From: Candidatus Enteromonas sp. | GTDB lineage: Bacteria > Bacillota_I > Bacilli_A > RFN20 > CAG-826 | Direction: 5' to 3' | DNA length: 64,000 nt | NCBI GenBank assembly: GCA_034171505.1 | Contig: JAXFGC010000027.1 | Span: 15,745 to 79,744 of the forward strand | Shown: positions 28,977 to 34,859 of the stretch, piece by piece | Numbering within the stretch: the stretch's first letter is position 1 | Layout of the letters: each line of letters starts with the position of its first letter | Program-made: the position numbers and the translations under genes | Notes under the pieces: model-generated | Databases searched by the model: none | What the model saw: the letters and a program-made list of their open reading frames with translations, nothing else | Told to the model about the DNA's origin: nothing

Positions 28977-30305
28977 ATGGCCAACCGAGAGAAAATTCAT
29001 CAAGACATCATCGAGTATTTCCAAGAGGAATACCGAAGCAAACCTTATCAAAAAGGCGACCGCATCCGTTATGCGGGGCGCGTATTTGACGAAAGGGAAT
29101 TGATTGCCGGCGTTGATAGCGTCCTTGATTTTTGGCTGACCTCCGGCAAATACTGCGCCAAACTCGAAAAGGAACTCGCCGAGTATATCGGTGTCCATAG
29201 CGCTTTCTTGACCACTTCAGGGTCGAGCGCCAACCTCCTTGCCTTCATGGCCTTGACCTCCTCTTCTTTGGGGGAACGGAGAATCTGCAGGGGAGATGAA
29301 GTCATCACGGTCGCCGCGGGATTCCCGACGACCGTCTCCCCGATGCTTAATTTCGGGGCGGTCCCCGTATTCGTGGACGTCACCATTCCCGAATACAACA
29401 TCGACGTGAGTAAACTCGAAGAGGCCCTATCCCCCAAAACGAAGGCGGTTATGATCGCCCATACCTTGGGAAATCCCTTTGACCTAAAAGCCGTCAAAGC
29501 CTTCTGCGATAAACACCACCTTTGGTTAATCGAAGACAATTGCGATGCGCTCGGAAGCGAATTCACGATCGATGGGGTCACCAAAAAGACCGGTGCGTGG
29601 GGCGATATCGGCACCGCATCGTTTTATCCCGCCCACCACATGACCATGGGCGAAGGAGGGGCGGTATTCACCAACAACCCCTTCTTGGCCAAGACGATCT
29701 TGGCGTTCCGTGATTGGGGCAGAGACTACTCTTGCCCACCGGGGGTGGATAATTCCTGCGGCCATCGTTTCTCCGGACAATACGGGGAATTGCCTTATGG
29801 CTATGACCATAAATACGTTTACAGCGAATTCGGATACAACCTCAAAGTCACGGAGATGCAAGCCGCGATTGGTCTAGAACAACTCCATAAAGTCCCAGGG
29901 TTCGTGGAAGCGAGAAAGAAAAACTGGAAGCGTTTGACCGAGCTCTTAAGCGACCTCCAAGATCGTTTGATTTTGCCTCGCCCCACCCCTGGAAGCGACC
30001 CAAGTTGGTTTGGCTATGTCATTACCTGCAAAGAAGGGGTGAGCCGAAACGCCCTTACGACGTTCTTGGAGAAGCGCCTCATTCAAACCCGAAACCTTTT
30101 CGCGGGGAACTTGCTCCGCCACCCTTGCTTTGACGAAATGCGGGAAAGCGGCGCGGGGTACCGCGTCGTTGGGGACCTCAAGAATACCGACACCATCATG
30201 AATTCCACGTTCTGGATTGGCGTTTATCCCGGCATGAGCGATGAAATGCTTTGCGATATGTCGGAAGCCATCCACGATTTCTTTGCCAAGGAGGATCGTC
30301 AATGA
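28977..30305 (+). CDS. rfbH: CDP-4-keto-6-deoxy-D-glucose 3-dehydrase-like protein (RfbH/DdhC family, DegT superfamily)
   Basis: ...RYAGRVFDERELIAGVDSVLDFWLTSGKYCAKLEKELAEYIGVHSAFLTTSGSSANLLAF... and ...GYNLKVTEMQAAIGLEQL. The RfbH-type N-terminus and 442-aa length fit. Sits next to rfbF and rfbG. Confidence 0.8.
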   Translation: MANREKIHQDIIEYFQEEYRSKPYQKGDRIRYAGRVFDERELIAGVDSVLDFWLTSGKYCAKLEKELAEYIGVHSAFLTTSGSSANLLAFMALTSSSLGERRICRGDEVITVAAGFPTTVSPMLNFGAVPVFVDVTIPEYNIDVSKLEEALSPKTKAVMIAHTLGNPFDLKAVKAFCDKHHLWLIEDNCDALGSEFTIDGVTKKTGAWGDIGTASFYPAHHMTMGEGGAVFTNNPFLAKTILAFRDWGRDYSCPPGVDNSCGHRFSGQYGELPYGYDHKYVYSEFGYNLKVTEMQAAIGLEQLHKVPGFVEARKKNWKRLTELLSDLQDRLILPRPTPGSDPSWFGYVITCKEGVSRNALTTFLEKRLIQTRNLFAGNLLRHPCFDEMRESGAGYRVVGDLKNTDTIMNSTFWIGVYPGMSDEMLCDMSEAIHDFFAKEDRQ

Positions 30306-31081
30306 AAGTATTGATTCTCGCGGGAGGCTATGGGACCCGCATTTCCGAAGAAAGCCAATACAAACCCAAGCCCATGATCGAAATCGGGGGAATGCCGATT
30401 CTTTGGCACATCATGAAGACCTACTCCAAATATGGATTCAACGAATTCGTCATTCTCGGGGGATACCGTCAATACATCATTAAGGAATACTTCAAGAACT
30501 ATTTCTTGCACCATTCCGACGTCACTTTTGACATGACCTGCGACCAAATCACCATCCATAAGCAATACGCCGAACCATGGAAAGTCACCGTTCTCGACAC
30601 CGGGCTAAACACCATGACCGGAGGGCGAATCAAACGGGCGAAGGATTACATCGGGGATGAAACCTTTATGTTAACTTATGGGGATGGTTTGGCGGACGTG
30701 AACCTTCAAAAGCTCCTGGAATTCCATCAAAAAGGCCATTGTTTTTGCACGTTGACGGCCGTGTCGCTTGCTTCCACCAAAGGGGTGTTGGACCTCTCAA
30801 AGGATGGAACGGTTTCCTCCTTCCGCGAGAAGGACCACGATGAAGACGGGGCGATCATCAACGGAGGCTTCATGGTCTGCGAACCCGAGGTCCTTGATTT
30901 CATCGATGGGGATTCCACCGCGTTTGAAAAGAAACCTTTGTCCGACCTTGCCCACCAAGGCCAACTCAAAGCCTACCTCCACAAAGGGTTCTGGCATTGT
31001 ATGGACACCAAACGCGACCACGATGAACTCGAAGAACTTTGGAGAACGGGCAACGCCCCGTGGAAGGTTTGGGATGATTGA
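30302..31081 (+). CDS. rfbF: Glucose-1-phosphate cytidylyltransferase
   Basis: MKVLILAGGYGTRISEESQYKPKPMIEIGGMPILWHIMKTYSKYGFNEFVILGGY is the canonical RfbF/DdhA N-terminus. ATGA overlap with rfbH. Confidence 0.92.
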   Translation: MKVLILAGGYGTRISEESQYKPKPMIEIGGMPILWHIMKTYSKYGFNEFVILGGYRQYIIKEYFKNYFLHHSDVTFDMTCDQITIHKQYAEPWKVTVLDTGLNTMTGGRIKRAKDYIGDETFMLTYGDGLADVNLQKLLEFHQKGHCFCTLTAVSLASTKGVLDLSKDGTVSSFREKDHDEDGAIINGGFMVCEPEVLDFIDGDSTAFEKKPLSDLAHQGQLKAYLHKGFWHCMDTKRDHDELEELWRTGNAPWKVWDD

Positions 31082-33039: not shown

Positions 33040-34859
33040 AAGTTCGCGTCGCGGATTATATTGCCTCCGCCTGTGAAAAGGCGGGGATACGTACGGCGTT
33101 TTCGGTCGTCGGAGGGGGTGCGATGCACCTCAACGACGCCTTTGGCCATCATCCTGGAATCGAAGTGGTCTATCCCCATCACGAGCAAACCTGCGCGATT
33201 GCAGCGGAAGGCTATGCCCGCGTGAATAACGAAATGGCCGCGGTGGTTGTGACCACGGGCCCAGGGGGGACGAACGCCTTAACCGGTGTGGTCGGGGCCT
33301 ATGTCGACTCCGTCCCTATGGTTGTGATTTCCGGACAAGTCCGTCGCGATTCATTTTCCCTAACAACCGGACTTCCTCTCCGGGCGATGGGGGACCAAGA
33401 ATACAATATCATCCCTTCGGTCAAACCGATGACGAAATACGCGGAATGCATCCTAAAAGAAGAAGATGTCCGTTATATCGTGGAGAAAGCTCTTTATCTC
33501 GCCAACCACGGCCGAAAAGGGCCCACCTGGATTGATGTCCCCGGGGATGTCCAAAGCGCGTATATCGATCCGGAAACCCTGCGCGGTTACGACCCGAAGG
33601 AAGACGAACTCGCTTTGGGCGTAACCGAAAAGGAACTCGAGACTTTGTTTGCGAAGATGAAAAAGGCGAAACGTCCTGTCATCTACGCGGGAAGCGCGAT
33701 TCGTTTAAGCGGGGGTTACGCGGTTTTCCGTCGTTTGATTGATGTCTTGGGCATTCCTGTTGTCACCGCCTGGAACAGCACCGACGTGATACCGAACGAT
33801 CATCCTCTTTACGCCGGAAGAGCGGGAAATTTCGGCGATCGATTTGGAAACTTCGCGGTTCAAAACGCGGACTTCATCCTCTCTCTTGGTTGCCGCCTTT
33901 CCATTCGCCAAACCGGGTTCAACTATGCCTCTTGGGCAAGAGAAGCCTATGTGGCGATGGTCGACATCGATGAAGCAGAGATGAAGAAACCCACTATCCA
34001 CGTGGAACTTCCCCTTCATGACGATGTGAAGCATTTCATGGAGACGTTCCTTTCCTTTTTGCAAGGCAAAGAGCTTCCGAGTTACGCCCGTTACGTCAAA
34101 CGTTGCCAAAAATGGAAGAAAGACTATCCCGTCATTTCCAAAGAACAACGAAGCCAAACGGGGATTTGCAATGCCTACGCGGTGATGGAGATGCTCTCCG
34201 AACACGTCAAAGAGGGGACTTTGGTGGTCTCCGGGAACGGCACCGCCTGCGTAGTCGGAGGACAGGTTTTCACCACGAAAGAAGGCACCCGTTTCATCGA
34301 GAACAGCGGGATGGCGTCCATGGGTTATGACCTGCCTGCCGCGATTGGGGCAAGCCTTGCCGCAGGACGGAGAGAAGTCCTTTTGTTAACCGGAGACGGT
34401 TCCATCCAAATGAACCTCCAAGAACTCCAAACGATCGTGGGTCAGAACCTGCCCATTAAGATCGTCATCTTCAACAACGATGGATACCATTCGATTCGCC
34501 AAAGCCAATCCAATTTTTTCAAGGATCGCAAGATGGTGGGAATCGGTCCGGAATCCAAGGATTTGACCTTCCCCGACATGTCTCGCATCGCTTGGGCGTA
34601 CCGCATTCCTTATTACCGCATCCAAACCAATCGGGGGATGAAACGTTTCTTGAAGGAACAATACGATTCCATCGACTCCTATGCGATTATCGAAGTCATG
34701 ACCGACACGGTCCAATTCTTCGAACCGAAAGCGGGCTCGATGCGGCTATCCGATGGCAAGATGGTTTCCGCGCCTCTAGAAGACCTTAAGCCTTATCTAG
34801 AACGAGAGGAACTCGAAAAAGAGATGATCATCCCTTTGTTTGACGGGAAAGAAAAATGA
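33036..34859 (+). CDS. Thiamine-diphosphate-dependent enzyme of the acetolactate-synthase superfamily, YerE-like candidate
   Basis: 607 aa. N-terminal Pyr domain ...[16 protein letters not shown]...[14 protein letters not shown]...[13 protein letters not shown]. C-terminal ThDP motif [32 protein letters not shown] (GDG...NN). RBS aaaggag. Confidence 0.8.
   Translation: [607 protein letters not shown]

Follow-up and report, generated by a model that had tools for sequence, protein, structure and literature searches.

A predicted branched 3,6-dideoxyhexose module with a JanthE-related thiamine diphosphate enzyme in Candidatus Enteromonas sp.

Gene content and organization of the module

We analyzed a 64,000-nt stretch of contig JAXFGC010000027.1 (assembly GCA_034171505.1) from Candidatus Enteromonas sp., here called the window, and compared it with contigs and loci designated L001 to L017. 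The subject is a run of five plus-strand genes at 28977-34859, which encode an E1-type 3-dehydrase (RfbH), RfbF, RfbG, an extended short-chain dehydrogenase/reductase (SDR), and a 607-amino-acid (aa) thiamine diphosphate (ThDP)-dependent enzyme. The original prediction, made from the DNA letters, had proposed a yersiniose-type branched-sugar pathway for these genes, and the open reading frame (ORF) listing and family scans recovered all five at the positions that it gave. Together with a GT-C-type glycosyltransferase, a GtrB-type GT2 glycosyltransferase, a Wzx-like flippase candidate, and a small membrane protein, they make up a larger unit at 26527-36644. With moderate confidence, we read this unit as one surface-glycan decoration module that would make a branched 3,6-dideoxyhexose and attach it at the cell surface.

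Three of the five genes could be assigned by matches above curated cutoffs. The first, rfbH/ddhC (28977..30305, 442 aa), encodes a CDP-4-keto-6-deoxyglucose 3-dehydrase of the E1 type, dependent on pyridoxamine 5'-phosphate (PMP) and a [2Fe-2S] cluster (NCBIfam RfbH NF011936, 675 bits versus a cutoff of 423). It is followed by rfbF/ddhA (30302..31081, 259 aa) for glucose-1-phosphate cytidylyltransferase (TIGR02623, 374 bits versus 300) and rfbG/ddhB (31074..32141, 355 aa) for CDP-glucose 4,6-dehydratase (TIGR02622, 399 bits versus 278). As proxies for the Yersinia YerE/YerF system we used the ddhDABC-yerE-yerF-like locus of Yersinia bercovieri (L013) and PpYerE (PDB 5ahk); the window proteins RfbF, RfbG, and RfbH are 54%, 47%, and 54% identical to the DdhA, DdhB, and DdhC of that locus, respectively. 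These equivalog matches bear out the proposal that genes leading from CDP-glucose to a CDP-4-keto-3,6-dideoxyhexose are here combined with a ThDP carboligase and an SDR. The SDR gene (32110..33039, 309 aa, with an alternative GTG start at 32134) and the ThDP gene (33036..34859) complete the set.

The five genes are translationally coupled, in keeping with the earlier description of them as overlapping or abutting. Reading the junctions, we found ATGA start/stop overlaps between rfbH and rfbF, between the SDR and ThDP genes, and between the ThDP gene and the gene that follows it. The most likely start of rfbG in a start-codon analysis is the ATG at 31074, which gives an 8-nt overlap with rfbF; the gene caller applied to L001 had picked 31023. 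Upstream, a strong terminator-like hairpin at 26457-26480 lies just 5' of the GT-C gene. The 83-nt gap ahead of rfbH (28894..28976, plus strand) holds a TATAAT-like box, read within GGGGAAACTAGTATATAATGATTTACG, which is possibly an internal promoter, but the evidence for this is weak, and the consensus scanner did not report the box.

The same gene order (GT-C, GT2, rfbH, rfbF, rfbG, SDR, ThDP, Wzx-like) was found in L002 and L009. The former is a metagenomic contig with a ThDP enzyme 74% identical to that of the window; the latter is a metagenome-assembled genome (MAG) labeled Candidatus Enteromonas sp., in which the ThDP enzyme is 85% identical and synteny with the window extends into the flanking genes. 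More broadly, the five-gene set was found again in loci from Firmicutes, Spirochaetia, and Proteobacteria, so the arrangement is not due to chance.

The ThDP enzyme, its SDR partner, and the predicted branch

The 607-aa protein has TPP_enzyme_N, M, and C domains, and the 32-residue motif quoted in the original prediction is present and fits the canonical GDG-X24-NN pattern. The top-ranking NCBIfam names for it are models of the acetohydroxyacid synthase (AHAS) large subunit (347 bits), and some databases call its homologues "acetolactate synthase." It might thus be taken for an ordinary acetolactate/acetohydroxyacid synthase, or a sulfoacetaldehyde acetyltransferase (Xsc), lying in a sugar operon by chance, but we consider this highly improbable. 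All AHAS, Gcl, and Xsc models scored far below their curated cutoffs (the best AHAS model, TIGR00118, gave 347 versus 538 bits, and another gave 220 versus 620). Among PDB sequences, JanthE (8rph) scored 452 bits, nearly twice any AHAS (plant AHAS, 244 bits; EcIlvB, 206), with PpYerE at 215. Moreover, Pfam scans found no ilvN, ilvC, or ilvD in the window, the gene is coupled to sugar genes, and its co-occurrence with rfb genes is kept across phyla. The family cutoffs, the ratios of the PDB scores, and the gene context together ruled out an ordinary AHAS or Xsc identity.

The lineage of the enzyme departs from what had been proposed. MAFFT alignment gave the window enzyme identities of 39.8% to JanthE, 27.4% to EcIlvB, 25.8% to PpYerE, and 24.9% to the YerE-like protein of Y. 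bercovieri. YerE of Yersinia pseudotuberculosis is itself ~59% identical to PpYerE. In a neighbor-joining tree with a single AHAS outgroup, the window enzyme fell in a Firmicutes/Spirochaetia subclade, sister to JanthE plus the enzyme of L012, with the PpYerE/Yersinia clade standing apart. The original prediction was therefore right that the protein would not group with ordinary acetolactate synthases or Xsc, and its place is beside JanthE; the placement in the YerE lineage did not hold, as the 25-27% identity and the separate clade rule out orthology to YerE. At least 120 protein clusters, built at 90% identity, show at least 53% identity to the window enzyme. Homology searches aimed at YerE and JanthE kin returned close relatives of PpYerE and JanthE only. 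The two lineages can coexist in one species, since an enzyme of the YerE clade (68% identity to PpYerE) and one of the JanthE clade (79% identity to JanthE) are each attributed to Pseudomonas extremaustralis.

JanthE, from Janthinobacterium sp. HH01, has been described as a "YerE-like" lyase; it carries an unusual CDG motif and joins 2-oxo acids to ketones (PMC12188165, PMC12247030), turning them into tertiary alcohols, as shown with non-physiological ketones (PMC12247030, PMC12188165). The YerE-like functional class has been defined as a ThDP lyase within a ddhABC cluster beside an NAD(P)H oxidoreductase (PMC9306805, PMC12247030). The window enzyme matches this layout, lying in a deoxy-keto-sugar gene cluster next to an oxidoreductase gene, and the layout is kept in 7 to 9 of the 10 related contexts that we sampled. 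These were nonredundant contexts of the window ThDP subclade (at least 50% identity); a contig scan with patterns from one protein led to four loci. A gene for an SDR of the window type adjoins the ThDP gene in 8 of the 10 and lies ~5 kb away in a ninth (L007), with SDR identities of 25-73% to the window protein. Eight contexts contain rfbG, and seven contain rfbH.

These counts bear on the alternative view that the operon makes an ordinary unbranched 3,6-dideoxyhexose such as abequose, paratose, or tyvelose, with the SDR acting as the C4 ketoreductase and the ThDP enzyme being accessory or unrelated, for example supplying an acyloin or acyl substituent. RfbF, RfbG, and RfbH alone constitute the classic 3,6-dideoxyhexose route, and the SDR lacks YerF-type similarity, its nearest solved kin being sugar-nucleotide epimerases and 4-reductase-like SDRs. 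We nevertheless judge this view improbable. The ThDP gene overlaps both the stop codon of the SDR gene and the start codon of the next gene, and the ThDP-SDR pair occurs together in 8 of the 10 contexts (9 with L007), remaining adjacent even in L011 and L016, which lack rfbH nearby. In addition, the nearest characterized relative of the ThDP enzyme, JanthE, is a ketone-accepting lyase encoded in an rfbFGH cluster, and to our knowledge no other function is known for such a ThDP enzyme in a CDP-sugar operon. The gene set is best read as one for making a C4-branched sugar.

The SDR itself carries intact TGxxGxxG and YxxxK motifs. It matches Pfam Epimerase with 113 bits and no NCBIfam equivalog, and its best PDB match (55 bits) is a UDP-sugar epimerase-type protein. 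The original prediction had expected a YerF-type reductase as the partner of the ThDP enzyme, and this did not survive comparison. By BLASTP, the window SDR has no similarity to the YerF-like protein of Y. bercovieri (best E-value, 4.8), and its family has no match to the Janthinobacterium SDR, so YerF homology was ruled out. The SDR encoded beside JanthE, in contrast, is 49% identical to the Yersinia YerF-like protein; the reductase partner has thus been replaced in the window subclade. The conserved adjacency and translational coupling lead us to predict that the window SDR is the NAD(P)H-dependent reductase of the newly formed acyl branch.

As for the donor, eight contexts had annotated neighbors, and none of them showed an aldolase next to the ThDP gene; L009, which has the window gene order, and L001, the near-identical counterpart of the window, were covered through the window annotation. 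Nor was an aldolase or other 2-oxo-acid-supplying gene present in the window, L002, L003, L010, or L017. The donor is therefore most likely a common one such as pyruvate, which would give a C2 branch. The more distant relatives look different. L012, with a ThDP enzyme 35% identical to the window's, carries rfbF, rfbG, rfbH, the ThDP gene, an adjacent HpcH aldolase gene, an SDR gene, and a methyltransferase gene. At the JanthE locus (L015) the order is rfbF, rfbG, rfbH, JanthE, SDR, acetaldehyde dehydrogenase, DmpG-type aldolase, SDR, and GT2. This order matches the erwiniose-type layout, with its ErwE/F/I/J logic, described by Steitz et al. in 2022 (PMC9306805), and the shared architecture suggests that ErwE falls in the JanthE lineage. 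The L012 enzyme (L012:10001-11812) also reads T-E-G at the position of the canonical G-D-G and the C-D-G of JanthE, so that its Mg2+-binding Asp appears to have been swapped for Glu in a cluster that holds an aldolase.

It is possible, though we think it unlikely, that the branch is longer than C2, or that the acceptor is something other than a 3,6-dideoxy-4-keto sugar, in which case the product would be a different and possibly undescribed branched sugar. Enzymes near JanthE take C3-C8 donors, and ErwE rejects pyruvate (PMC9306805, PMC12247030). The window enzyme has Asn at the position of JanthE Met406 and GDG where JanthE has CDG, the SDR family is new, and L011 and L016 have no rfbH nearby. 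Set against this are the absence of a 2-oxo-acid-supplying gene from the window, L002, L003, L010, and L017 and the retention of rfbH in 7 of the 10 contexts.

RfbH, its electron supply, and the proposed delivery of the sugar

Over residues 4-436, window RfbH aligns with the Y. pseudotuberculosis E1 structure (PDB 3bcx) at 492 bits. The position of E1 His220 is also His in the window protein (YPAHH), where window FYPAHHMTMGEGG aligns with E1 FYPAHHITMGEGG; the structure of the E1 H220K mutant (3bb8) reads AKH at this site. Because the His is kept, window RfbH is a dehydrase of the E1/SpnQ type and not an aminotransferase, which answers in the affirmative the earlier question of a His-for-Lys substitution. 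The matching expectation for the [2Fe-2S] ligands came out only in part. The equivalents of E1 C193, C253, and C261 are present, but that of C251 is Tyr, leaving three of the four ligands. This substitution lay outside the original prediction, as did the flanking GT-C, GtrB-type GT2, and flippase genes.

Tyr251 is encoded by TAC at 29727..29729 (plus strand), with a G-to-A change at 29728. L001, a 14.6-kb contig 99.88% identical to the window, has TGC (Cys) at this codon. There are 18 differences between L001 and the window, two of which lie inside the five sugar genes, and Cys251Tyr is the only nonsynonymous one there. Cys occupies position 251 in all nine other RfbH sequences compared (from Firmicutes, Spirochaetia, Yersinia, and Janthinobacterium) and in Y. 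pseudotuberculosis E1, and all nine retain the full four-Cys motif; among these 10 RfbH sequences and E1, Tyr251 was found only in the window strain. The spacing of the [2Fe-2S] motif is reportedly C-X57-C-X1-C-X7-C (Agnihotri et al., 2004), and cysteines 193, 251, 253, and 261 of 3bcx fit it. Both E1 and SpnQ need the four-cysteine motif (PMC8987622). With Tyr in this strain alone and Cys in L001 and the relatives, the codon reflects either a ligand mutation that may inactivate RfbH or an erroneous base.

Cys251Tyr may accordingly block C3 deoxygenation at the RfbH step in this strain. The pathway could then be inactive and the operon silent or in decay, or the operon could instead serve a 3-hydroxylated substrate, for example CDP-4-keto-6-deoxyglucose. 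The uniqueness of Tyr251, its standing as the only nonsynonymous difference from L001 in the sugar genes, and the need of E1 and SpnQ for all four cysteines speak for this. However, all other genes are intact and without frameshifts, and, in sequence derived from a metagenome, one deviating base may be a mistake or a variant from a minor part of the population; on balance, inactivation seems a minor possibility. It also concerns the state of one strain and does not conflict with what the module is built for: the gene family is clearly of the E1 type, even if the window allele may be defective.

The original prediction had noted that E3 (DdhD/AscD), the usual reductase partner of RfbH, is missing from the window, and this was borne out. 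E3 was sought as a combination of Fer2, FAD_binding_6, and NAD_binding_1 domains, and Pfam found none of the three among candidate genes picked from window ORFs of at least 150 aa. A tblastn search with a genuine DdhD, from the ddhD-ddhA-ddhB-ddhC locus of Y. bercovieri, gave no match at an E-value of up to 10 in the window, nor within ~10 kb in L001 to L012 and L015. A ddhD hidden in the window was ruled out on these two grounds. In L016 and L017 no DdhD-type protein was seen among the Pfam-annotated genes. Altogether, ddhD occurs in none of the 10 sampled contexts of the window ThDP clade and was also not found in the L012 and JanthE loci, so its absence from the neighborhood of these genes, to which the search was confined, is a trait of the whole lineage and not a peculiarity of the window. 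The absence is mechanistically unproblematic, since SpnQ, an E1 homologue, runs on general ferredoxin or flavodoxin reductase pairs (PMC8987622).

We considered whether a flavin-reductase-like gene just upstream (25864..26424, plus strand, 186 aa; PF01613, 43.9 bits) might stand in for E3. It is kept in L009 only, and the terminator-like hairpin at 26457-26480 then separates it from the module, so it is probably a separate transcription unit outside the module. L017 has a Flavin_Reduct-rubredoxin gene two genes past rfbH (L017:18714-19331), with no sequence kinship between its product and the window protein. On these grounds, the gene at 25864..26424 was rejected as a conserved E3 surrogate, and a role for it as electron donor to RfbH would be speculative. 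The presence of flavin-reductase genes near rfbH in the window and L017 may be coincidence, or they may be candidate E3 surrogates.

Delivery of the sugar is suggested by the genes on either side. The first gene of the module (26527..27936, plus strand) encodes a polytopic membrane glycosyltransferase of the GT-C type, 469 aa long with ~10 hydrophobic segments, which matches Pfam GT87 with 24.5 bits against a cutoff of 25. Its counterpart in L002 (30% identity) has a precomputed PF09594 match, and that in L009 is 48% identical; it is predicted to be an extracytoplasmic transferase using a polyprenyl-phosphate-sugar donor. Next comes a polyprenyl-phosphate glycosyltransferase of the GtrB/ArnC-type GT2 family (27946..28893, plus strand, 315 aa; Glycos_transf_2, PF00535, 83 bits). 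It matches GtrB (5ekp, 139 bits) and ArnC (97 bits) at full length in the PDB and PgfS in NCBIfam (174 bits, under the cutoff), and it has two hydrophobic C-terminal transmembrane segments within residues 230-297. Downstream of the ThDP gene, a Wzx/MOP-like polytopic membrane protein (34856..36124, plus strand, 422 aa, ~10-11 hydrophobic segments against the ~12 expected of a Wzx/MOP flippase) matches Polysacc_synt (PF01943) with 22.6 bits versus a cutoff of 28.2. Homologues in L002 and L009 are 52% and 76% identical, the former with a weak precomputed match, and we regard the protein as a possible flippase of the lipid-linked sugar. In both the window and L009, the module ends with a gene for a 169-aa membrane protein (36135..36644, plus strand) with 3-4 hydrophobic segments and no Pfam or NCBIfam match; it is 79% identical in L009 and absent from L002.

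Other members of the clade show related pairings. The ThDP-SDR pair is coupled to a GtrB-like GT2 gene in the window, L002, L009, L007, and L016, and to YfhO in L011; the GT2s near the ThDP genes of L016 and L007 are 46-51% identical to that of the window. L003/L004 and L017 are Wzy-type polysaccharide loci, where a Wzx-type gene adjoins rfbH (L017) or is fused to it (L003). The fusion, in an Erysipelotrichaceae MAG (GCA_015059145.1), is a 936/937-aa ORF (L003:12742-15552, L004:12739-15552) that joins a Wzx/MurJ-type flippase domain to a full RfbH, an unusual pairing of a membrane flippase with a cytoplasmic PMP/[2Fe-2S] dehydrase in one ORF.

A natural parallel for such a route comes from Y. 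bercovieri, where the ddhDABC-yerE-yerF-like genes are followed by gtrA, a GT2 gene, and a gene for a 748-aa membrane protein; L013 thus links the sugar genes to gtrA-GT2 and a Gtr-type polyprenyl phosphate route for a yersiniose-type sugar. Window GT2 and L013 GT2 are 44% identical and align with 272 bits, compared with the 139 bits that the generic GtrB structure gave. By analogy, the window GT2 may use a CDP-sugar donor, although the 44% identity is not decisive alone. In L013 (5785-16267; GCA_902168485.1), the membrane protein after the GtrB-type GT2 is of the DUF7024 type, and transposase and phage-like genes lie upstream; the locus has the look of a mobile Gtr-type module that attaches yersiniose as a side branch.

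These elements can be joined in one pathway. The sequences show what the genes are, how the operon is built, that the cassette is conserved, in which clade the ThDP enzyme falls, and that E3 is missing nearby; we infer each chemical step after RfbG, which 2-oxo acid is the donor, what the SDR does, delivery by way of a lipid carrier, and the acceptor. RfbF would form CDP-glucose, which RfbG would oxidize and dehydrate to CDP-4-keto-6-deoxyglucose. RfbH, with PMP and its [2Fe-2S] cluster, would remove the 3-OH, taking electrons from a general ferredoxin/flavodoxin system and not from a dedicated E3. The ThDP enzyme would then decarboxylate a 2-oxo acid, most likely pyruvate, and place the acyl anion on the C4 ketone, after which the adjacent SDR would reduce the side-chain ketone to give a CDP-4-C-(1-hydroxyalkyl)-3,6-dideoxyhexose, yersiniose-like and of unspecified stereochemistry. 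The GtrB-type GT2 would transfer this sugar to polyprenyl phosphate, the Wzx-like protein would flip the lipid-linked sugar across the membrane, and the GT-C enzyme would join it to a surface glycolipid, lipoglycan, or protein.

It is also important to point out what weighs against this pathway. The flippase and GT-C calls rest on sub-threshold Pfam matches, the SDR is not YerF-like and has epimerases as its best characterized kin (~55 bits), and Tyr251 in RfbH may leave the pathway nonfunctional in this genome. With its single AHAS outgroup, the ThDP tree is unresolved in its deep branches. Ketone acceptance is known from the relative JanthE, with non-physiological ketones, and not from the window subclade itself. 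Finally, L016 and L011 have no rfbH within 10 kb, and the ThDP enzyme of L005/L006 (55% identity; L005:10001-11839) is encoded among unrelated genes, so the acceptor sugar may differ between lineages. The L005/L006 gene lies between a Dus gene and genes for 2-hydroxyacyl-CoA dehydratase (HGD-D/BcrAD), with no sugar-nucleotide genes within 10 kb, and not every member of the ThDP subclade may act on sugars.

Host setting and comparison with known systems

Candidatus Enteromonas corresponds to GTDB genus UBA733 in order RFN20, family CAG-826 (PMC8035907). Bacilli of this family are related to Mycoplasmatales and, according to prediction, are peptidoglycan-deficient and without standard teichoic acid synthesis (PMC10868615). 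The earlier impression that the surroundings look Gram-positive or Mollicutes-like was right in view of this kinship and predicted peptidoglycan deficiency, though the G+C content of the window is ~50%.

Elsewhere in the window, a plant-glycan-use cluster at 6507-14715 encodes a GH78 alpha-L-rhamnosidase, an MFS_2 transporter, a GH3 enzyme, and an AraC regulator, and a separate hexuronate catabolic operon at 18700-22520 encodes UxaC, KDPG aldolase, a PfkB kinase, and a GntR regulator. Such capacities are notable in a small-genome Mollicutes-like gut bacterium. On the minus strand at 38072-42729 lie genes for a 1071-aa SNF2-family helicase with an SNF2_assoc domain and then a 500-aa SWIM zinc-finger protein, a pair kept beside the module in L001 and L009. 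Further along are a 628-aa protein without a Pfam match (51302-53188), a 522-aa protein with three DUF1508 repeats in its C-terminal part (53264-54832), and a 1157-aa minus-strand ORF without any Pfam match (59921-63394).

Yersiniose, erwiniose, and caryophyllose are carbon-branched sugars from a few Gram-negative and mycobacterial glycans and are strong antigenic determinants. The original prediction had taken YerE/YerF as the only characterized case, a view that is outdated: a ThDP lyase in a ddhABC cluster with an oxidoreductase has been established as a source of acyl-branched sugars for YerE, ErwE, MMAR_2332, and MyGE (PMC9306805, PMC12247030). Because this idea is already in print and has been mined in silico, what is added here is incremental and not conceptual. 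The present case differs in having a ThDP subclade without an assayed member, a non-YerF SDR, E3 missing throughout the loci sampled, a predicted wall-less host lineage, and a probable GT2/flippase/GT-C delivery route. Tentatively, these may reflect a larger combination, in which a large JanthE-related ThDP subclade, a new non-YerF SDR family, and an E3-independent E1 would occur widely among gut Firmicutes, Mollicutes-like Bacilli, and spirochaetes.

If such modules are active, gut anaerobes would commonly display branched 3,6-dideoxyhexoses as surface epitopes, and RFN20/CAG-826 bacteria would carry branched sugars on membrane lipoglycans or proteins through a Gtr-like route fed by a CDP-sugar. 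Branched-sugar chemistry would then reach abundant uncultured gut Bacilli related to Mollicutes, and a second, non-YerF reductase family would be available for branch reduction. It would also strengthen the case that E1-type 3-dehydrases usually run without a dedicated E3 and would offer a new subclade of ketone-accepting ThDP lyases for the biocatalytic synthesis of tertiary alcohols. The value of these observations would rise if branched dideoxyhexoses prove common on gut anaerobes or if Tyr251 proves to be a real natural knockout.

Among known systems, JanthE is the closest solved and characterized relative of the window ThDP enzyme (452 bits, 39.8% identity; structures 8rph, 8rpi, and 8rpj). 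Both loci hold rfbF, rfbG, rfbH, and an adjacent SDR gene, and neither has ddhD. They differ in that JanthE has CDG and Met406 where the window enzyme has the canonical GDG and Asn, and the JanthE locus also encodes an acetaldehyde dehydrogenase and a DmpG-type aldolase, pointing to a longer donor, along with a YerF-type SDR; the window has neither the aldolase nor such an SDR. With Yersinia YerE/YerF, the window shares the predicted logic of DdhA/B/C followed by a ThDP carboligase and an SDR, and a GtrB-type GT2 accompanies the sugar genes in both the window and Y. bercovieri (44% identity). However, the ThDP enzymes are only 25-27% identical, as distant as AHAS, the SDRs have no detectable similarity, and the DdhD/E3 and GtrA of Yersinia are both missing from the window.

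SpnQ of the spinosyn forosamine pathway resembles window RfbH as an E1 homologue with the [2Fe-2S] motif, His in place of Lys, and no dedicated E3 (PMC8987622). The likeness is one of published description; SpnQ belongs to an antibiotic pathway of an actinomycete, where its substrate is of the TDP-2,6-dideoxy type. For the membrane genes, the closest models are the three-component systems of extracytoplasmic glycosylation, GtrA/GtrB/GtrC, CsbB/GtcA/YfhO, and Pgf. The window unit likewise has a GtrB/ArnC-like GT2, a polytopic GT-C-like protein, and a candidate flippase, and a YfhO gene lies two genes downstream of the ThDP-SDR pair in L011. In contrast to these systems, the donor in the window would be a CDP-branched dideoxyhexose instead of UDP-Glc or UDP-GlcNAc, the flippase candidate is Wzx-like and not GtrA-like, and the lineage is predicted to be without peptidoglycan and standard teichoic acids (PMC10868615).

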